Below, piece after piece: positions 1,663-41,318 of a DNA stretch of 64,000 nt; the stretch's first letter is position 1, and each line of letters begins with the position of its first letter. The notes beneath the pieces are model-generated. The model had not been told where the DNA came from and did not search any database. It saw nothing but the letters and a program-made list of their open reading frames with translations. A program made the translations under genes and the position numbers. Where the stretch lies: NCBI RefSeq assembly GCF_963921235.1, contig NC_086108.1, positions 79,300,001 to 79,364,000 on the forward strand. Reading direction: 5' to 3'. Source of the DNA: Mobula hypostoma. Lineage: Eukaryota.

Positions 1663-4217
1663 AGAAACATAGAAACATAGAAAACCTACAGCACAATACA
1701 GGCCCCTCGGCCCACAAAGTTGTGCCGAACATGTCCCTAACTTAGAAATTACTAGGCTTACCTAAAGCCCTCTAAGCTCCATGTACCTATCCAAAAGTCT
1801 CTTAAAAGACCCTATCGTATCCGCCTCCACCATTGTTGCCGGCAGCCCATTCCACACACTCACCACTCTCTGAGCAAAAAACTTACCCCTGACATCTCCT
1901 CTGTACCTACTCCCTAGCACCTTAAACCTGTGTCCTTCGTAGCAACCATTTCAGCCCTGGGAAAAAGCCTCTGACTATCCACACAATCAATGCCCTCATC
2001 ATCCTATACACCTCTATCAGGTCACCTCTCATCCTCTGTCGCTCCAAGGAGAAAAGGTCGAGTTCATTCAACCTATTCTCATAAGACATGATCCCCAATC
2101 CAGGCAATATTCTTGTAAATCTCCTCTGCACCCTTTCTATGGCTTCCATATCCTTCCTGTAGTGAGGCAACCAGATATGAGCACAGTACTCCAAGTGGGG
2201 TCTGACCAGGGTCTTATACAGCTGCAACATTACCTCTCGGCTCCTAAGTTCAATTCCATGATTGATGAAGGCCAATACACCATACGCCTTCTTAACCACA
2301 GAGTCAACCTGAGCAGCTCCTTTGAGTGTCCTATGGACTCGGACCCCAACATCCCTCTGATCTTCCACACTGCCAACAGTCTTACCATTAATACTATATT
2401 CTGTCATCATATTTGACCTACCAAAATGAACCACTTCACACTTACCTGGGTTGAACTCCATCTGCCACTTCTCAGCCCAGTTTTGCATCCTATCAATGTC
2501 CCGCTGTAACCTCTGACAGTTCTCCACACTATTCACAACACTTCCAACCTTTGTGTCATCAGCAAACTTACTAACCCATCCCTCCACTTCCTCATCCAGG
2601 TCATTTATAAAAATCACGAAGAGTAAGGGTCCCAGAACAGATCCCTGAGGCACTCCACTGGTGACTGACCTCCATGCAGAATATGACCTGTCTACAACCA
2701 CTCTTTGCCTTCTGTGGGCAAGCCAGTTCTGGATCCACAAAGCAATGTCCCCTTGGATCCCATGCCTCCTTGCTTTCTCAATAAGCCTTGCATGGGATAC
2801 CTCATCAAATGTCTTGCTGAAATCCATATACACTACATCTACTGCTCTTCCTCCATCAATGTGTTCAGTCACGTCCTCAAAAAATTCAATCAGGCTCGCA
2901 AGGCACGACCTGCTCTTGACAAAGCCACGCTGACTATTCCTAATCATATTATATCTCTCCAAGTGTTCATAAATCCTGCCTCTCAGGATCTTCTTCATCA
3001 ACTTACCAACTACTGAGGTAAGACTCACTGGTCTATAATTTTCTGGGCTATCTCTACTCCCTTTTTTAAACAAAGGAACAACATCTGCAACCCTTCAATC
3101 CTCCGGAACCTCTCCCGTCCCCATTGATGATGCAAAGATCATCACCAGAGGCTCAGAAATCTCCTCCCTTGCCTCCCACAGTAGCCTGGGGTACATCTCA
3201 TCCGGTCCCAGCGACTTATCCAACTTGATGCTTTCCAAAAGCTCCAGCACATCCTCTTTCTTAATACTTACATGCTCAAGCTTTTCAGTCTGCTGCAAGT
3301 CATCACTATAATCACCAAGATCCTTTTCCATAGTGAATACTGAAGTAAAGTATCCATTAAGTACCTCTGCTATTTCCTCCAGTTCCATACATACTTTCCC
3401 ACTGTCACACTTGATAGTTCCTATTCTTTCACACCCTATCCTCTTGCTCTTCACATACCTGTAGAATGCCTTGGTGTTTTCCTTAATCCTGCCCGCCAAG
3501 GCCTTCTCATGGCTCTTTCTGGCTCTCCTAATTTCCTTCTTAAGCTCCTTCCTATTAGCCTTATAATCTTCTAGATCTCTAACATTACCTAGCTTTCTGA
3601 ACCTTTTGTAAGCTTTTCTTTTCTTCTTGACTAGATTTAATATAGCCTTTGTACACCACAGTTCCTGTACCCTACCATAATTTCCCTGTCTCATTGGAAC
3701 GTACCTATGCAGAACTCCACACAAATTTCCCCTGAACATTTGCCACATTTCTTCTGTACTTTTCCCTGAGAACATCTGTTTCCAATATAAGCCTCCAATT
3801 TCCTGCCTGACAGCCTCATAATTCCCCTTACTCCAATTAAGCACTTTTCTAACTTGTCTGTTCCTATCTTTCTCCAATGCTATTGTAAAGGAGATAGAAT
3901 TGTGATCACTATCTCCAAAATGCTCTCCCACTGAGAGATCTGACACCTGACCAGTTTCACTTCCCAATACCATATCAAGTACAGCCTCTCCTCTTGTAGG
4001 ATTATCTACATATTGTGTCAAGAAACCTTCCTGAACGCACCTAACAAACTCCAACCCATCTAAACCCCTTGCTCTAGGGAGATGCCAATCAAAATTTGGG
4101 AAATTAAAAGCTCCCATCACAACAATTCTGTTATTATTACACCTTTCCAGGATCTGTTTCCCTATCTACTCATCACTATCCCTGTTCCTATTGGGCAGCC
4201 TATAAAAAACACCTCAA
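1663..4217 (-). mobile_element. CR1 LINE, 5'-truncated; ORF2 (part of APE endonuclease plus RT) disrupted near 3075-3095
   Basis: ORFs 3095-4120 and 1922-3073 contain NYRPVSLTS, QRGF, DFSKTFD, GVPQGSVLGP, KFADDTK, RPHLEYC; (TTTCTATG)n tail at about 1663-1682. Confidence 0.92.
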
Positions 4218-15893: not shown

Positions 15894-16120
15894 AGTTGTA
15901 GAGTCCTTGAAAGTGAGTCCATACGTTGTGGAGTCAGTTCAGTGTTGAGGTGGGTGAAGTTATCCATGGTGGTTCAGGAGCTTGATAGCTGAAAGATAAT
16001 AACTGTTTCTTCTGTTAGTTAGTTGTAATATAGTTGTAACCATAAAAGTCTCCTTGAATAGCTTCTCTTCCTTCAGTCAAATTGAGTAAAGCCAGCATGG
16101 AAGACAAATACGATTGTCAT

Positions 16121-19100
16121 CTGAGAAGATGGCAGCTCGACGGCAGCACGCGCGGCCACTTCGGTGGTGATGTCTGTTATCTGTCAAGTAGGGGACCGTG
16201 CACAATTCTGATTTGATGGAGACAGATGTGAGAGCATGGAGGAGCATCTGGAAAACTTCTGAAATGTCCTAGGGTGAGCATTTGTAACTGTTGTTCAGGA
16301 GGATTTAAACTAATGTGGCAAGGGGATGGGAACAAGTGCAGAGAGACAGAGGGGTGTAAAATGAGGGTAGAAGCAAAAAGTAGTAAGGTGAAAAGTAGAA
16401 GTGGCAGGCCGGCAAATCCAGGACAAAAATCAAAAAGGGCCACTTTTCAACATAATTATATAAGGGCTATGAGTGATGTAAAAGCAAGCCTGAAGGCTTT
16501 GTGTGTCAATGCAAGGAGCATTCGTAACAAGGTGGATGAATTAAAAGTGCAGATTGTTATTAATGAATATGATATGGTTGGGATCGCAGAGACATGGCTC
16601 CAGGGTGACCAAGGGTGGGAGCTCAACATTCAGGGATATTCAATATTCAGGAGGGATAGACATGAAAGAAAAGGAGGTGGGGTAGCATTGCTGGTTAGAG
16701 AGGAGATTAACGCAATAGAAAGGAAGGACATTAGCCGGGAGGATGTGGAATGGATATAGGTAGAGCTGCATAACACTAAGGGGCAGAAAACACTGGTGGG
16801 AGTTGTGTACAGGCCACCTAACAGTAGTAGTGAGGTTGGGGATGGCATTAAACAGGAAATTAGAAATGCGTGCAATAAAGGAACAGCAGTTATAATGGGT
16901 GACTTCAATCTACATATAGATTGGGTGAACCAAATTGGTAAGGGTGCTGAGGAAGAGGATTTCTTGGAATGTATGCGGAATGGTTTTCTGAGCCAAAATG
17001 TCGAGGAACCAATAAGAGAGCAGGCCATTCTAGACTGGGTATTGAGCAATGAGGAAGGGTTCATTAGCAATCTTGTCGTGAGAGGCCCCTTGGGTAAGAG
17101 TGACTATAATATGGTGGAATTCTTCATTAAGATGGAGAGTGACATAGTTAATTCAGAAACAAAGGTTCTGATCTTAAAGAAGGGTAACTCTAAAGGTATG
17201 AGACGTAAATTAGCTAAGATAGACTGGCAAATGATACCTAAAGGGTTGACGGTGGATATGCAATGGCAAGCATTTAAAGATCACATGGATGAACTACAAC
17301 AATTGTTCATCCCAGTTTGGCAAAAGAATAAACCAGGGAAGGTAGTGCACCCATGGCTGACAAGGGAAATTAGGGATAGTATCAATTCCAAAGAAGAAAC
17401 ATACAAATTAGCCAGAAAAAGCGGCTCACCTGAGGATTGGGAGAAATTCAGAGTCCAGCAGAGGAGGACAAAGGGCTTAATTAGGAAAGGGAAAAAAGAT
17501 TATGAGAGAAAACTGGCAGGGAACATAAAACCTGACTGTAAAAGCTTTTATAGATATATGAAAAGAAAAAGATTGGTTAAGGCAAATGTAGGTCCCTTAC
17601 AGTCAGAAACAGCTGAATTGATCATGGGGAACAAGGACATGGCAGACCAATTGAATAACTACTTAGGTTCTGTCTTCACTAAGGAGGACATAAATAATCT
17701 TCCGGAAATAGTAGGGGGCAGAGGGTCTAGTGAGATGGAGTAACTGAGGGAAATACATGTTAGTAGGGAAGTGGTGTTAGGTAAATTGAAGGGATTAAAG
17801 GTAAATAAATCCCCAGGGCCAGATGGTCTGCATCCCAGAGTGCTTAAGGAAGTAGCCCAAGAAATAGTGGGTGCATTGGTGATAACTTTTCAAAACTCTT
17901 TAGATTCTGGATTAGTTCCTGAGGATTGGAGAGTGGCTAATGTAACCCAGCTTTTTCAAAAAGGAGGGAGAGAGAAACCAGGAATTATAGACTGGTTAGC
18001 CTAACATTGGTGGTGGGGAAAATGCTAGAGTCAGTTATCAAAGATGTGATAACAGCACATTTGGAAAGTGGTGAAATCATCAGACAAAGTCAGCATAGAT
18101 TTGTGAAAGGAAAATCATGTCTGACGAATCTCATAGAATTTTTTGAGGATGTAACTAGTAGAGTGGATAGGGGAGAACCAGTGGATGTGGTATATTTGGA
18201 TTTTCAAAAGGCTTTTGACAAGGTCTCACACAGGAGATTAGTGTGCAAACTTAAAGCACACGGTACTGGGGGTATGGTATTGACGTGGATAGAGAAATGG
18301 TTGGCAGACAGGAAGCAAAGAGTGGGAATAAACAGGACCTTTTCAGAATGGCAGGCAGTAACTGGTGGGGTACTGCAAGGCTCAGTGCTGGGACCCCAGT
18401 TGTTTACAATATATATTAATGACTTAGATGAGGGAATTAAATGCAGCATCTCCAAGTTTGCTGATGACATGAAGCTGGGCAGCAGTGTTAGCTGTGAGGA
18501 GGATGCTAAGAGGATGCAGGGTGACTTGGATAGGTTAGGTGCGTGGGCAAATTCATGGCAGATGCAATTTAATGTGGATAAATGTAAGGTTATCCACTTT
18601 GGTGGCAAAAACAGGAAAACAGATTATTATCTGAATGGTGGCCAATTGGGAAAAGGGGAGGTGCAACGAGACCTGGGGAAAAGGAGAGGTACACCAGTCA
18701 TTAAAAGTGGGCATGCAGGTACAGCAGGCGGTGAAAAAGGCAAATGGTATGCTGGCATTCATAGCAAGAGGATTCGAGTACAGGAGCAGGGAGGTACTAC
18801 TGCAGTTGTACAAGGCCTTGGTGAGACTGCACCTGGAGCATTGTGTGCAGTTTTGGTCCCCTAATCTGAGGAAAGACATTCTAGCCATAGGGGGAGTACA
18901 AAGAAGGTTCATCAGATTGATTCCTGGCATGGCAGGGCTTTCATATGATGAAAGACTGGATTGACTAGGCTTATACTCGCTGGAATTTGCAAGATTGAGG
19001 GGGGATCTTATTGAAACGTATAAAATCCTAAAGGGAGTGGACAAGCTAGATGCAGGAAGATTGTTCCCAATGTTGGGGAAGTCCAGAACGAGGGGTCACA

Positions 19101-19935
19101 GTTTAAGGATAAAGGGGAAACCTTTCAGGACCAAGATGAGGAAAAACTTCTTCACACAGAAAGTGGTGAATCTGTGGAATTCTCTGCCACAGGAAACAGT
19201 TGAGGCCAGTTCATTGGCTATGTTTAAGAGGGAGTTAGATATGGCCCTTGTGGCTAGAGGGATCAGGGGTTATGGAGAGAAGGCAGGTAGAGGGTTCTGA
19301 GTTGGATGATCAGCCATGATCATACTGAATGGCGGTGCAGGCTCAAAGGGCCAAATGGCCTATTCCTGCACCTATTTTCTATGTTTCTATGTTTCTATGC
19401 CTGCTTTGCTGCCGCTGCTACTGTGTGGTAACCAGAATCTCCGGAGCAGAAGGCCCCGAAATCCTCAGCTTTGCATGTTTCAGTGGCCGGGGCGAGGTCG
19501 AAGGCGCTCGGCAGAGGATGGCGCTCGGGAGGCTGTATCAAAGAGGCTGGTCAGAAGCTCGAAGTTTTTGGACAGATGGACTCAGTGTTGGCTGTGGTCG
19601 GCTGCTTCCAAGGCATCGGCAAATTGATGGTGCCTGGAGGTTTATGGCAGGAAACTTCTCCCTTCTGCTGTCTGCTATCAGGGACTCGGGAGTCGATCGA
19701 CTTGGGGACTTTTGAGACTTTATTTACTGTGCCCATGGTTTGTTCTTCATCAAATTATGGTATTGCTCTGCTCTGCTGTAACTATATGTTATAATTATGT
19801 AGTTCTGTCAGTGTTAGTCTTTGGTTTGCCCTGTTTTCTGTGATATCACTCCAGAGAAACATTGTATCATTTCTTAATGCACGTATGCATTTCTAAATGA
19901 CAATAAAAAGAGGACTGAGTGTTCTCATGATCTAA
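16121..19935 (+). mobile_element. Non-coding non-autonomous retroelement (AAGATGGC 5' end, ATGACAATAAA tail), split by a CR1
   Basis: Starts gagaagatggcagctcg; GC/CpG-rich body resumes at 19399; ends ctaaatgacaataaaaagagg. Confidence 0.6.
16270..19398 (+). mobile_element. CR1 LINE: last codons of ORF1 plus complete but disrupted ORF2
   Basis: ORF pieces 16274-16759, 16796-17743, 17771-18004, 18007-18864, 18635-18964 and 18995-19300 are colinear with the intact ORF2 at 37378-40392; (TTTCTATG)3 tail. Confidence 0.95.
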
Positions 19936-20674: not shown

Positions 20675-22835
20675 AGAATTTACTTCAAGGTTTAAGAAAA
20701 TCTGCCAAACGGAGTTCAAAAGTAAAAATATAACAAAGGCAATAAACACTTCTGGTATACCCATAGTAACATATTCTTTTGACATATTATCTTGGTCTGG
20801 AAGATCTAGAAAACTTACAAAGCAAAATATGAATTGAAATTACAAATTTTATAAAACACTATGTACACTATGGGTGCATTTAGATTAACACTACCTGGGA
20901 CAGAAGGAGGAAGAGGAATAACTGACATAAAGTACTGACACAACAGTCAGAGAAAACTTCTAAGGAATTATTTTCATTAATGAAAACAGGATTCAGCATA
21001 TGCAATTCTGATAAGAAGTACATCACACTAAATGTAAATGAAAGCACAACCCAGAAAAATGAAGGAATTATTACAACAGAGGAAAAAGTTAACCAATGGA
21101 AGAGCGTGACCCTCCAGGGAAGACATCCGCATGATCTGAGCAGACTAGATGTCGACAAGAGTGGAGACCTCTTCCAATACAGGCCCAGGTGCTTAACAAG
21201 AAAAATTATCAAAAAATACGTAATGAAAGACTAATAAATTCAAGATGATAAATTCAGAAAATGTCAAGAGAAACCAGAAACAATCCACACATTGCAAGAC
21301 CTGCAGCAGTTAATTTAATCTGATTACTTACAGAGACACAATCAAGAGGCAAATATCGTTCACCAAAATCTTGCTTTAAAATACAAACTCATAAAAAACA
21401 CCATACCTTACTATAAATACAAGCCTGATCCAGTTTTAGAGTCAGAGTCCTACAAATTATATTATGACTGGTCCATTATTACAGAAATTTGCCAAAACCT
21501 AATGAAATTGAAACTTTAATTCAAAAAGGGAAAATTAAAAAATGTATTTCTTGTATGTATAATTTGATTCAAAAACAGACAATTAAACAAGGAATTCATA
21601 AGTCAAAACAAAAATGGGAAACAGATCTGAATATTAATATTGATGAAACAAATTGGTCAAGACTCTGTCTTGACAGTATGACAAATACAATAAATGTTCG
21701 ACTTAGATTAGTACAATATAATTTTTTACATCAATTATATATTACACCACAAAAAATAAATAGATTAAATTCAAATCTATCCGATAAATGCTTTGGGTGT
21801 AATCAAGAAATTGGTACTTCCTTACATTCTACTTGGTCTTGTTTTAAAATTCAACCCTTCTGGATAAATTTAAGAGTCTTATTGGAACAAATTACTGGAA
21901 CTCAACTTCCACATAACCCTGTATTATTTCTATTAGGTGATATTGAAGGGATAAAGCCGAAACTTAAATTGAATAAATATCAGAAAGAATTTATAAAAAT
22001 TGCATTGGCAGTAGCTAAGAAGACTATAGCAGTTACTTGGAAATCTGATTCGTATTTAAGTATGAATCGTTGGAATAATGAAATGGCTAGTTCTATTCCA
22101 CTCGAAAAAATTACTTATAATTTAAGAGATAAATATGTAACATTTTTGAATATTTGGCGCCCTTATTTACAAAAGATAGGATGGCATATTTAAGTGCTCC
22201 GATAAAGATCTTGGTCCCTTGGGGAAAGTAACAAATAAGTATACCAAATTTATTTTGAATTCCATGGAGCATGTGGAAACCTTCCAATACCCAGGCAGCT
22301 CTTCTTTTTTTCTTCTTTTCTTTTTTAGGTAGGACTTTATATGGGGGGGGGAGGGTTAAGGGGAGGGGGGAGGGTAGATATTATCTTTTCATGTATTCTT
22401 TTTGAAAACTCAATAAAAATTATATTAAAAAAAAAGAAATCTATAGTAACCAACCAGATATAATAATACAGGATAAACATGCAAGAACAACTTACTTAAT
22501 AGATATCATATTCCAAACAAACATAACATACAAAAATCAATAAATGAAAAACACCAGAAATATTCTGAATTAAAAGAGGAAATTGAAAGACTATGGAATA
22601 TGAAGAGAGTGTATATTGTCCCGATAGTAATATCTACAACTGGTATCAACCCAAAGTCACTACACTATAGTATTAAACATTTAAGGCTACACAGCAATAT
22701 CTATGTAAATCTCCAGAAAGTTGCAATACTAAACACCACTAAATAGTCTGAAAGTTTCTAGCAATTGAGAAATGAGTGTGTTGGCTATGCCCGTACCTCA
22801 GGTTTTACCAGTTTGAGGTGAGAAAAAAGCAAAAA
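20675..22835 (+). mobile_element. R4/Dong-clade element, 3' part (CCHC finger and restriction-like endonuclease), interrupted by L1
   Basis: WKSVTLQGRHP, RKCQEKPETIH, RHNQEANIVHQNL, QPDIIIQDK...YLIDI, KYSELKEEIERLW, IVPIVISTTG; (TAA)n-like sequence at both ends. Confidence 0.82.
21489..22434 (+). mobile_element. L1-clade LINE, 5'-truncated; open ORF2 C-terminus 21489-22193, 3' UTR and poly(A)
   Basis: KWETDL, RLVQYNFLHQLYITP, CFGC...H..WSC zinc knuckle, LFLLG, TWKS, LEKITY, IWRPY; AATAAA plus A tail; TSD AGAAAT (21483-21488 / 22435-22440). Confidence 0.9.
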
Positions 22836-36965: not shown

Positions 36966-37377
36966 TATGGATGGATTTAATGGATGGATATCTATAGATG
37001 TGTGTGGAGAGTGTATTGACTAGTAGCATCATGGCCTGGTATGGAAACACCAACGCTCTTGAATGGAAAATCCTACAAAAAGTTGTGGCTACCACCCAGT
37101 CCATTACAGATGAAACCGTCCCTACCATTGAGCACATCTACGTGGAGCACTGTTGCCAGAAAGTAGCATCCATCATCAAGGACTCTCACCACCCAGGGCA
37201 TGCTCTCTTCTTGCTTCTGCCATTAAGAAGAAGGTACAGGAGCTGTAGGACCCACACCACCAGGTTCAGGAATAGAAACATAGAAACATAGAAACATAGA
37301 AAATAGGTGCAGGAGTAGGCCATTCGGCCCTTCGAGCCTGCACCGCCATTTATTATGATCATGGCTGATCATCCAAC

Positions 37378-40300
37378 TCAGAACCCAGCCTTCCCTCCAT
37401 ACCCCCTGACCCCTGTAGCCACAAGGGCCATATCTAACTTCCTTTTAAACATAGCTAATGAACTGGCCTCAACAGTTTGCTGTGGCAGAGAATTCCACAG
37501 ATTCACCACTCTCTGTGTGAAGAAGTTTTTCCTAACCTCGGTCCTAAAAGGCTTCCCCTCTATCCTCAAACTGTGACCCCTCGTTCTAGACCTCCCCAAC
37601 ATCGGGAACAATCTTCCTGCATCTAGCCTGTCCAATCCCTTTAGGATCTTATACGTTTCAATCAGATCCCCCCTCAATCTTCTAAATTCCAACGAGTACA
37701 AGCCCAGTTCATCCAGTCTTTCTTCATATGAAAGACCTGCCATCCCAGGAATCAATCTGGTGAACCTTCTTTGTACTCCCTCTATGGCAAAGATGTCTTT
37801 CCTCAGATTAGGGGACCAAAACTGCACACAATACTCCAGGTGTGGTCTCACCAAGGCCTTGTACAACTGCAGTAGTACCTCCCTGCTCCTGTACTCGAAT
37901 CCTCTCGCTATAAATGCCAGCATACCGTTCGCCTTTTTCACCGCCTGCTGTACCTGCATGCCCACTTTCAATGACTGGTGTATAATGACACCCAGGTCTC
38001 GTTGCACCTCCCCTTTTCCTAATCGGCCACCATTCAGATAATAATCTGTTTTCCTATTTTTGCCACCAAAGTGGATAACTTCACATTTATCCACATTAAA
38101 TTGCATCTGCCATGAGTTTGCCCACTCACCCAACCTATCCAAGTCACCCTGCATCCTCTTAGCATCCTCCTCACTGCTAACACTGCCACCCAGCTTCGTG
38201 TCATCCGCAAACTTGGAGATGCTGCATTTAATTCCCTCATCCAAGTCATTAATATATATTGTAAACAACTGGGGTCCCAGCACTGAGCCTTGCGGTACCC
38301 CACTAGTCACCGCCTGCCATTCTGAAAAGGTCCCGTTTATTCCCACTCTTTGCTTCCTGTCTGCTAACCAATTCTCCACCCACACCAATACCTTACCCCC
38401 AATACCGTGTGCTTTAAGTTTGCACACTAATCTCCTATGTGGGACCTTGTCAAAAGCCTTTTGAAAATCCAAATATACCACATCCACTGGTTCTCCCCTA
38501 TCCACTCTACTAGTTACATCCTCAAAAAATTCTATGAGATTCGTCAGACATGATTTTCCTTTCACAAATCCATGCTGACTTTGTCCGATCATTTCACCGC
38601 TTTCCAAATGTGCTGTTATCACATCCTTGATAACTGACTCCAGCAGTTTCCCCACCACCGACGTTAGGCTAACCGGCCTATAATTCCCCGGTTTCTCTCT
38701 CCCTCCTTTTTTAAAAAGTGGGGTTACATTAGCCACCCTCCAATCCTCAGGAACTAGTCCAGAATCTAACGAGTTTTGAAAAATTATCACTAATGCATCC
38801 ACTATTTCTTGGGCCACTTCCTTAAGCACTCTGGGATGCAGACCATCTGGCCCTGGGGATTTATCTGCCTTCAATCCCTTCAATTTACCTAACACCACTT
38901 CCCTACTAACATGTATTTCGCTCAGTTCCTCCATCTCACTGGACCCTCTGTCCCTTACTATTTCTGGAAGATTATTTATGTCCTCCTTAGTGAAGACAGA
39001 ACCAAAGTAATTATTCAATTGGTCTGCCATGTCCTTGCTCCCCATAATCAATTCACCTGTTTCTGTTTGCAGGGGACCTACATTTGTCTTTATCAGTCTT
39101 TTCCTTTTTACATATCTATAAAAGCTTTTACAGTCCGTTTTTATGTTCTCTGCCAGTTTTCTCTCATAATCTTTTTTCCCCTTCCTAATTAAGCCCTTTG
39201 TCCTCCTCTGCTGAACTCTGAATTTCTCCCAGTCCTCAGGTGAGCCACTTTCTCTGGCTAATTTGTATGCTACTTCTTTGGAATTGATACTATCCCTAAT
39301 TTCTCTTGTCAGCCACGGGTGCACTACCTTCCTTGATTTATTCTTTTGCCAAACTGGGATGAACAATTGTTGTAGTTCATCCATGCAACCTTTAAATGCC
39401 TGCCATTGCATATCCACCGTCAATCCTTGAAGTGTCATTTGCCAGTCTATCTTAGCTAATTCATGTCTCATACCTTCAAAGTTACCCCTCTTTAAGTTCA
39501 GAACCTTTGTTTCTGAATTAACTACGTCACTCTCCATGTTAATGAAGAATTCCACCATATTATGGTCACTCTTACCCAAGGGGCCTCTCACGACAAGATC
39601 GCTAATTAACCCTTCCTCATTGCTCAAAACCCAGTCCAGAATAGCCTGCTCTCTAGTCGGTTCCTCGACATGTTGGTTCAAAAAACCATCCCGCATACAT
39701 TCCAAGAAATCCTCTTCCTCAGCACCTTTACCAATTTGGTTCACCCAGTCTACATGTAGATTGAAGTCACCCATTATAACTGCTGTTCCTTTATTGCACA
39801 CATTTCTAATTTCCTGTTTAATACCATCTCCGACCTCACTACTACTGTTAGGTGGCCTGTACACAACTCCCACCAGCGTCTTCTGCCCCTTAGTGTTACG
39901 CAGCTCTACCCATATCGATTCCACATCTTCCCGGCTTATGTCCTTCCTTTCTATTGCGTTAATCTCTTTTTTAACCAGCAACGCCACCCCACCTCCCCTT
40001 CCTTCGTGTCTATCCCTCCTGAATATTGAATATCCCTGAACGTTGAGCTCCCATCCCTGGTCACCCTGGAGCCATGTCTCTGTGATCCCAACTATATCAT
40101 AATCATTAATAACAATCTGCACTTTCAATTCATCCACCTTATTACGAATGCTCCTTGCATTGACACATAAAGCCTTCAGGCACTCTTTTACAACTCTCTT
40201 AGCCCTTTTTAATGCTTGCCCTGGATTTGTCGGCCTGCCACTTTTACTTTTCCCCTTTGTACTTTTTGCTTCTACGCTCACTTTACACCCCTCTGTCTCT

Positions 40301-40392
40301 CTGCACTGGTTCCCATCCCTCTGTTGTGAACTAACCCCCTCACACCTAGCCGCTTTAATTTGATTCCCACCCCCCAACCATTCTAGTTTAAA
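37378..40392 (-). CDS. CR1 ORF2: APE endonuclease plus reverse transcriptase; no upstream in-frame ATG
   Basis: NARS, ITETW, YRPP, GDFN, LDWVL, SDHN; SPGPDG, YRPVSLTS, QHGF, DFQKAFD, GVPQGSVLGP, FADD, DLGV; frame is open from the TGA at 40401-40399. Confidence 0.95.
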   Translation of the reverse strand, partial: FKLEWLGGGNQIKAARCEGVSSQQRDGNQCRETEGCKVSVEAKSTKGKSKSGRPTNPGQALKRAKRVVKECLKALCVNARSIRNKVDELKVQIVINDYDIVGITETWLQGDQGWELNVQGYSIFRRDRHEGRGGGVALLVKKEINAIERKDISREDVESIWVELRNTKGQKTLVGVVYRPPNSSSEVGDGIKQEIRNVCNKGTAVIMGDFNLHVDWVNQIGKGAEEEDFLECMRDGFLNQHVEEPTREQAILDWVLSNEEGLISDLVVRGPLGKSDHNMVEFFINMESDVVNSETKVLNLKRGNFEGMRHELAKIDWQMTLQGLTVDMQWQAFKGCMDELQQLFIPVWQKNKSRKVVHPWLTREIRDSINSKEVAYKLARESGSPEDWEKFRVQQRRTKGLIRKGKKDYERKLAENIKTDCKSFYRYVKRKRLIKTNVGPLQTETGELIMGSKDMADQLNNYFGSVFTKEDINNLPEIVRDRGSSEMEELSEIHVSREVVLGKLKGLKADKSPGPDGLHPRVLKEVAQEIVDALVIIFQNSLDSGLVPEDWRVANVTPLFKKGGREKPGNYRPVSLTSVVGKLLESVIKDVITAHLESGEMIGQSQHGFVKGKSCLTNLIEFFEDVTSRVDRGEPVDVVYLDFQKAFDKVPHRRLVCKLKAHGIGGKVLVWVENWLADRKQRVGINGTFSEWQAVTSGVPQGSVLGPQLFTIYINDLDEGIKCSISKFADDTKLGGSVSSEEDAKRMQGDLDRLGEWANSWQMQFNVDKCEVIHFGGKNRKTDYYLNGGRLGKGEVQRDLGVIIHQSLKVGMQVQQAVKKANGMLAFIARGFEYRSREVLLQLYKALVRPHLEYCVQFWSPNLRKDIFAIEGVQRRFTRLIPGMAGLSYEERLDELGLYSLEFRRLRGDLIETYKILKGLDRLDAGRLFPMLGRSRTRGHSLRIEGKPFRTEVRKNFFTQRVVNLWNSLPQQTVEASSLAMFKRKLDMALVATGVRGYGGKAGF

Positions 40393-41318
40393 GTCACCTC
40401 AGTAGCCCCCGCTAATCTCCCTGCCAGGATATTGGTCCCCCGAGGATTTAAGTGTAACCCGTCCTTTTTGTACAGGTCACACCTGCGCCAAAAGAGGTCC
40501 CAATGATCCAAAAACTTGAATCCCTGCCCCCTGCTCCAATCCCTCAGCCACGCATTTATCCTCCACCTCATCGCATTCCTACTCTCACTGTCGCGTGGCA
40601 CAGGCAGTAATCCCGAGATTACTACCTTTGCGGTCCTTTTTCTCAACTCCCTTCCTAGCTCCCTATATTCTTCTTTCAGGACCTCATCCCTTTTCCTACC
40701 TATGTCATTGGTACCTATATGTACCAGGACCTCTGGCTCTTCACCCTCCCACTTCAGGATATCTTGGACACGATCAGAAATATCCCGGACCCTGGCACCA
40801 GGGAGGCAAACTACCATCCGAGTCTCTGGACTGCGTCCACAGAATCGCCTATCTGACCCCCTTACTATCGAGTCCCCTATCACAACTGCCCTCCTCTTCC
40901 TTGCCCTACCCTTCTGAGCTACAGGGCCAGACTCTGTGCCGGAGGCAGGGCCACTGTCGCTTCCCCCGGGTAAGCTGTCCCCCCCAACAGTACTCAAACA
41001 GGAGTACCTGTTGTTAAGGGGCACAGCCGCCGGGGTACTCCCCATCACCTTCCTTTTCCCCTTCCCCCTCCTAACCGTGACCCACTTGTCTGCCTCCCGT
41101 GGCCCCGGCGTGACCACCTGCCTTCCACTCCTCTCTATCACCTCCTCACTCTCCCTGACCAGACGAAGGTCATCGAGCTGCAGCTCCAGTTCCGTAACGC
41201 GGTCCCTTAGGAGCTGCATCTCGATGCACTTGGCGCAGATGTAGACGTCCGGGAGGCTTGGAGACTCCAGGGCCTCCCACATCCGACACCGAGAACAGCA
41301 AACTGCCCTCACAGTCAT
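40383..41318 (-). CDS. CR1 ORF1 (311 aa from ATG 41318): zinc finger, coiled coil, SGNH esterase domain
   Basis: CCSRC...YICAKC; LRDRVTELELQLDDL; GDSIVR, CLPGA, HIGTND, DGLHLN motifs. Confidence 0.93.
   Translation of the reverse strand: MTVRAVCCSRCRMWEALESPSLPDVYICAKCIEMQLLRDRVTELELQLDDLRLVRESEEVIERSGRQVVTPGPREADKWVTVRRGKGKRKVMGSTPAAVPLNNRYSCLSTVGGDSLPGGSDSGPASGTESGPVAQKGRARKRRAVVIGDSIVRGSDRRFCGRSPETRMVVCLPGARVRDISDRVQDILKWEGEEPEVLVHIGTNDIGRKRDEVLKEEYRELGRELRKRTAKVVISGLLPVPRDSESRNAMRWRINAWLRDWSRGQGFKFLDHWDLFWRRCDLYKKDGLHLNPRGTNILAGRLAGATEVTLN

Follow-up and report, generated by a model that had tools for sequence, protein, structure and literature searches.

The window analysed here, a stretch of 64,000 nucleotides, contains a CR1 LINE on the minus strand (41318-37272) with two open frames, and is otherwise composed of repeat-rich animal DNA. 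The features of this element are the following.

40383..41318, minus strand: ORF1, 311 aa from the ATG at 41318, an SGNH esterase with a Leu-Asn-stop end
40399..40401, minus strand: TGA closing the ORF2 frame, two codons upstream of the heptamer
40386..40392, minus strand: slippery heptamer T_TTA_AAC, in the X_XXY_YYZ register of ORF1
40383..40385, minus strand: ORF1 stop TAG, abutting the 3' end of the heptamer; other families have TAA or TGA
40366..40375, minus strand: G-rich motif GGGGGRNGGG, +11 to +20 nt 3' of the heptamer, a candidate stimulator
40309..40323, minus strand: relic G-motif of another family's junction, matching 16318-16332 (plus strand) in a second copy
40279..40281, minus strand: in-frame GTG, a possible alternative ORF2 start; ATG in many relatives, 34 codons before the endonuclease
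37378..40398, minus strand: ORF2 frame, 1006 codons, with a linker of ~75 residues, an APE endonuclease and a reverse transcriptase; first ATG at 39774
37272..37377, minus strand: 3' UTR, with a predicted terminal hairpin (37344-37306) and a TTTCTATG-repeat tail

The focal element and its junction

As an element, the focal CR1 is an ordinary canonical one. It shares with canonical vertebrate CR1 an esterase-type ORF1 (Pfam PF13472 Lipase_GDSL_2, E 3e-16), an ORF2 with APE endonuclease and reverse transcriptase (PF03372 and PF00078), and a 3' end formed by a hairpin and a short tandem-repeat tail without poly(A); its junction also matches rows labelled CR1 in the searchable part of the PMC13343379 supplement. 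ORF1 further contains N-terminal Cys motifs together with coiled-coil-like and basic stretches. The nearest ORF1 homologue (99%) is an entry named Mobula hypostoma, and further homologues are named from rays, sharks, coelacanth, frogs, turtles, squamates and birds. Protein P0021, listed as an SGNH hydrolase of Pseudomonas aeruginosa, is a close ORF1 homologue (60%), and host contamination of this record is likely. The first-pass annotation had described the element as intact, which holds for the two open ORFs and not for the 5' side, where only ~70 nt of apparent 5' UTR precede another repeat. The element appears to be inserted into a repeat recurring in the window (about 41500-41390 and 37270-37210, minus strand; 15900-16000, plus strand), and no clear target-site duplication was seen around the insertion. 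Elsewhere in the window, a third and older CR1 family at 1922-4165 (minus strand), 64% identical to the focal ORF2, is 5'-truncated within the endonuclease and so has no junction, and a 241-codon open frame at 21468-22193 (plus strand) resembles by eye the Cys-rich C terminus of an L1/Tx1-type ORF2.

Inspection of the junction bears out the geometry that the first-pass annotation had described. ORF1 terminates as ACT TTA AAC TAG, which places T_TTA_AAC (40392-40386, minus strand) in exact X_XXY_YYZ register, and ORF2 lies in the -1 frame, opening two codons earlier after the TGA at 40401-40399 and running to 37378. The first ATG of this frame, placed by that annotation at about residue 202, is residue 209 of the stop-to-stop frame and residue 202 counted from the TTG at 40377; it sits beyond the NARS, ETW and YRPP motifs, deep inside the endonuclease. 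The G-rich run starts as claimed at 40379, after a 6-nt spacer. Within ORF1 and ORF2 this is the sole in-frame X_XXY_YYZ heptamer. As a word, TTTAAACTA has 4 matches in the window against 1.26 expected, a number reached in 5 of 100 shuffles; with so little enrichment, the case rests on register and conservation.

The window harbours a second CR1, on the opposite strand.

16263..19399, plus strand: second CR1, 5'-truncated and decayed, with a different ORF1 end
16304-16310, plus strand: heptamer of the second copy, followed by TAATG (16311-16315) and a G-motif

Although its ORF1 end is different, the second copy carries the same signal, GAT TTA AAC TAA TG. From 40319 downstream the focal element is 91% identical to it, and since this identity begins at the G-motif of the second copy, the focal ORF1 plus junction was likely joined from another family. 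The focal subfamily is thus likely a recombinant, in which a foreign ORF1, bringing along its heptamer, stop and G-run, would have been joined to the ORF2 of the second family with the frame kept, and the relic G-motif at 40309..40323 is the likely recombination point. Compared with the second copy, the focal subfamily has 57 extra nt at the junction and misses 27 nt further on, both in frame; its two G-motifs lie 57 nt apart, and it has neither a TAATG nor a stop-proximal AUG. Although it has no stop-proximal AUG, the focal family is abundant in two runs, with the GTG form of the subfamily accounting for 83% of the depth in run X1, a point in favour of the frameshift reading.

Conservation of the heptamer among CR1 families

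A metagenome scan gave 27 loci, 10 of which reach the junction, the remaining 17 ending early or being too decayed; we term them bird-type on account of their likeness to proteins whose cluster includes a turkey entry. Eight of the 10 bird-type junctions read TTTAAAC-stop, one reads TTTAAAC-AAG and one is decayed (TTTTAAAAAA). The endonuclease lies in the -1 frame of the heptamer in all seven loci with an endonuclease match, as well as in both window copies, and the -1 offset of ORF2 is constant even though the length of the linker differs among loci. The heptamer is invariant in 10 of 10 aligned junctions, a set picked as heptamer-bearing. Along the 19 codons upstream, identity at third positions is only 15-63% in eight sequences (including L020, which has an indel there), and the three wobble bases of the heptamer show no variation among the same loci. 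For comparison, third positions in the focal element are T in 24% of codons, TTA represents 17% of its Leu codons and AAC 36% of its Asn codons. This DNA sample is small, partly decayed and phylogenetically non-independent. Among 40 of 52 rows listed, from contigs of 4 of 24 runs and representing close-kin copies, no variant at 5% or above was found in 40353-40395, an interval chosen post hoc. No relatives turned up when prokaryote and viral collections were scanned, a single weak Prevotella SGNH match (L028) being left unused.

A broader set of families was available in the PMC13343379 supplement, whose searchable part consists of the first 400 nt of each consensus, here mostly selected on the heptamer. 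In this part, TTTAAACTA falls at CR1-type junctions in 16 of the 22 places listed (of 23), and one further junction with TGA brings the number to 17 consensuses under 12 species labels, which read as sharks, rays, chimaera, bowfin, a teleost, coelacanth, frog, crocodilians and a lizard; one more row has the heptamer without a clear stop. The codon before the heptamer varies among these consensuses (GCT, TCT, TTT, GAT, GGT, TGT or TAT) and always ends in T. When rows of the same supplement were found instead by an upstream anchor, as a control, the heptamer was present in 6 of 6 CR1 rows. By eye, none of the six synonymous heptamer variants lies at an ORF1 end among the 44 places listed (of 50) in this searchable part, and none of the 10 places with first-base variants does either. 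Two shark CR1 consensuses of the supplement, SquAca_CR1-3 and CR1-18, also contain GGTTTAAACTA in their 5' UTR.

The first-pass annotation had proposed comparing junctions across CR1 families and had regarded synonymous variation of the Leu-Asn codons as evidence against its reading. In the comparison TTTAAAC is conserved at the nucleotide level, divergent families keep ORF2 in the -1 frame and no synonymous variant was seen at an ORF1 end. On these alignments, the heptamer followed by a stop is a real, deeply conserved signal at the CR1 ORF1/ORF2 junction.

Proteins extend the pattern further. ORF1 ends in LN in 84 of the 120 homologues listed, and in 83 of the 92 with an intact C-terminal motif. 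A profile search produced 150 matches, 99 of them with a usable C-terminus and with relatives that are not independent; in 64 of the 99 the terminal pair is heptamer-compatible (LN 51, GN 10, KN 3), against 2-15 compatible pairs at eleven upstream offsets, and 35 have an incompatible terminal pair. Once LN is excluded, 13 of 48 terminal pairs are still compatible, against 1-6 at the upstream offsets. The residue preceding GN is Gln in 9 of 10 cases, as G_GGA_AAC would need, and the residue preceding LN allows a T-ending codon in 50 of 51. Endings in a distant clade are QGN, VGN, KGN and AGN, or GFLG and GFFR, with several members showing neither. The GN and KN endings fit a swap of the heptamer to G_GGA_AAC or A_AAA_AAC, as far as can be judged from proteins, among which QGN may be one clade. 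The distant esterase ORF1 proteins P0116 and P0121-P0147, together with the profile set, display xGN, xKN, GFLG or GFFR endings; in one distant clade KN is placed ~8-12 residues ahead of the stop codon, and no compatible ending is seen in others (ECRG, CVSR). Depletion of E, Q, K, M and W at residue -3 alone, a protein-only test, was dropped as non-discriminating, since these residues are just as scarce at positions -6 and -7.

This failure of the residue -3 test to discriminate, and the fact that LN closes an amphipathic helix, would suit an explanation in which the Leu-Asn pair is a protein constraint on the last helix of the esterase, the heptamer is its by-product and a separate or spliced RNA with a downstream start yields ORF2. 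We consider this improbable: synonymous variants were seen at no junction, the residue before LN varies widely while its codon is still T-ending, and Gly or Lys replaces Leu in distant clades. Furthermore, the stop may be TAG, TAA or TGA and there is thus no constant splice AG. A reading of the junction as a splice site was rejected, since the stop and the bases following it vary.

ORF2 start codons and the downstream G-run

The most serious rival to frameshifting is synthesis of ORF2 as a separate protein through termination-reinitiation, either on the ORF1 stop or immediately past it, using UAAUG, a stop-NN-AUG or a near-cognate codon such as the TTG at 40377 or the GTG at 40281; L1 and viruses with a UAAUG stop-start are described as using this route. 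An in-frame AUG is present at ORF2 codon 4-5 in 6 of the 11 junctions examined, which the first-pass annotation had not foreseen; a TAATG overlap occurs in the second window copy, in locus L017 and in 2 of the 17 consensuses from the searchable part of the PMC13343379 supplement. In the focal copy no AUG overlaps or adjoins the stop. The GTG at 40281-40279 is ATG in 17% (X1), 95% (X5) and 43% (X14) of contig depth, and the second window copy has ATG at the matching site, which in close relatives puts an AUG 102 nt downstream. The lack of an early AUG put forward by the first-pass annotation stands for the focal copy and is a trait of the focal subfamily. Reinitiation can also employ non-AUG codons, according to the available text of PMC3542737, and conservation of frame beside a stop would be expected under it as well. 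Nevertheless, reinitiation leaves the invariant wobble bases of the heptamer and the LN/GN/KN pattern unexplained, a proximal AUG is absent by eye in 15 of the 17 consensus junctions, and UGGGA (the TURBS motif) was not found at a conserved upstream distance, since 5 of 10 junctions lack it within 150 nt and the rest have it at 30-117 nt. We regard reinitiation as the general route to ORF2 as unlikely; given how often codon 4-5 is an AUG and the ATG at 40281 in relatives, it could serve some families or operate alongside frameshifting.

The frameshift reading directs attention to the sequence 3' of the heptamer. In the 10 aligned junctions the GGGG at +12 to +15 is invariant, so that four G columns of the motif do not vary, and three more are conserved at 90% or above. 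The ORF2 Gly codon within the motif is GGG in 10 of 10 junctions (GGG makes up 36% of the Gly codons of the focal element), and G is the last base of the preceding codon in 9 of 10, although that codon encodes L, Q, K, R or S. Local folding found no stable structure 3' of the focal heptamer (z +0.95); the 9 junctions folded gave z values from -3.0 to +1.3 with unlike structures and no shared nested fold, and no local pairing partner of the G-run was seen. A local stimulator fold, looked for 5-9 nt downstream as a nested structure, was rejected on the ground that nested folds are neither stable nor shared. Only 2 of the 9 junctions are predicted to form a two-tier quadruplex. The first-pass annotation had been right about the G-rich run and had not foreseen a conserved unpaired motif in place of a hairpin or pseudoknot.

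Conservation of the G-run at wobble positions might also reflect another RNA role of heptamer and G-run, such as binding of ORF1p or ORF2p, packaging or 3'-end pairing, in place of a role in decoding. In the focal copy the 3' end is the best partner of the G-run among 75 windows (rank 1-2, about -13 kcal/mol), but in the second copy it ranks 6-9 of 75 and the pairing is rich in G-U pairs; 3'-end pairing is therefore unproven. Since RNA binding needs neither the exact X_XXY_YYZ register with ORF1 nor a constant -1 frame, we find a non-decoding role very improbable.

A proposed frameshift mechanism and its relatives

The exact register, the closed frame upstream and the conservation at nucleotide level lend comparative support to the frameshift interpretation of the first-pass annotation, and we propose that CR1 ORF2 is probably made by programmed -1 frameshifting on U_UUA_AAC, as an ORF1-ORF2 fusion. 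In this mechanism a minority of ribosomes would slip by -1, with tRNA-Leu and tRNA-Asn moving from UUA AAC to UUU AAA, and translation would continue at CUA to give T-L-N-L-E-W-L across the joint. The junction peptides expected by the first-pass annotation, TLKLEWL or TFKLEWL, are not those that standard tandem slippage would predict. In two database proteins, P0036 and P0177, the ORF1 frame continues into the linker and endonuclease of ORF2 with FKL at the joint; these are either single mutated copies or annotation artefacts. The predicted product would be a 1313-residue esterase-endonuclease-reverse transcriptase fusion, alongside the 311-residue ORF1 protein, and the ribosomes that do not slip would stop at once, resulting in a high ratio of ORF1p to fusion. 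The least certain step is the pause, which may be caused by the unpaired G-run 11-20 nt downstream, through a bound protein or a weak G-quadruplex, rather than by a local pseudoknot; the adjacent stop may perhaps aid pausing.

The heptamer U_UUA_AAC is among the most shift-prone for mammalian ribosomes (PMC5009743, available text). It is the heptamer that coronaviruses use, and as at the tandem-slippage sites of coronavirus ORF1a/1b and retroviral gag-pol, the polymerase ORF of CR1 lies downstream in the -1 frame. The CR1 junction differs from those sites in that no 3' pseudoknot or hairpin was found, its zero-frame stop follows the heptamer directly and its host is a non-LTR retrotransposon. 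In Rous sarcoma virus and barley yellow dwarf virus the zero-frame stop also comes directly after the heptamer. Regarding stimulators, the PRRSV nsp2 frameshift is trans-activated by nsp1beta/PCBP on CCCANCUCC, a short linear motif whose start lies 11 nt 3' of where slippage occurs (PMC5009743, in the same text). The CR1 motif starts likewise at +11, a likeness limited to position: it is G-rich whereas the PRRSV motif is C-rich, and it is not known to bind a protein.

Among retrotransposons, ORF2 of Dictyostelium TRE5-A and TRE3-A is stated to require a -1 frameshift in the available text of PMC5911963, which gives neither heptamer nor experiment; these are APE-type LINEs like CR1, though of a different clade and with an unrelated ORF1. 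Mammalian L1, whose ORF2 synthesis is ascribed to reinitiation or an IRES, and zebrafish ZfL2-1 resemble CR1 in having a bicistronic LINE RNA that needs to yield little ORF2p, but as far as the accessible descriptions go L1 has a spacer and uses reinitiation, in place of the frameshifting proposed for CR1. Zebrafish ZfL2-1 is said, in work by Kajikawa of 2012, to read through its ORF1 stop in frame. ZfL2-1 has, as CR1 does, an esterase ORF1 (PMC3905857, available text).

The junction signal is unmentioned in the accessible parts of the published CR1 descriptions checked, including PMC13343379 and PMC4255032. A literature search that covered accessible text including PMC5006619, PMC3592465 and PMC11303007, and left out Haas 1997, Kajikawa 1997 and Kapitonov & Jurka 2003, gave no account of CR1 frameshifting or of how CR1 ORF2 is translated; 'CR1' is absent from the searched text of PMC5009743, and 'frameshift' from the searched text and searchable supplement of PMC13343379. 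It is quite possible, if not what we expect, that the heptamer has already been mentioned in Haas 1997, Kajikawa 1997, Kapitonov & Jurka 2003, Repbase notes or supplements. What we put forward is a known mechanism proposed for a new host class, with an unusual candidate stimulator.

CR1 ranks as the most abundant transposon family among birds, crocodilians and turtles as well as snakes (PMC4316615, available text). We offer more tentatively, and hold as somewhat doubtful, the wider proposal that CR1 of jawed vertebrates and its esterase-ORF1 relatives may have produced a Gag-Pol-like fusion for several hundred million years through the swappable heptamers U_UUA_AAC, G_GGA_AAC and A_AAA_AAC, driven by a G-run at position +11, to which a host protein or ORF1p would bind, and needing no pseudoknot. 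Were this true, it would provide a natural G-rich, trans-activated stimulator letting the host or the element tune retrotransposition. If CR1 ORF2 is indeed reached by frameshifting, the working enzyme would be, unlike that of L1, an esterase-endonuclease-reverse transcriptase fusion, annotations that start ORF2 at the first AUG would be wrong for such families, and vertebrate genomes would contain an instance of -1 recoding that is deeply conserved and whose stimulator differs from the classical folds.
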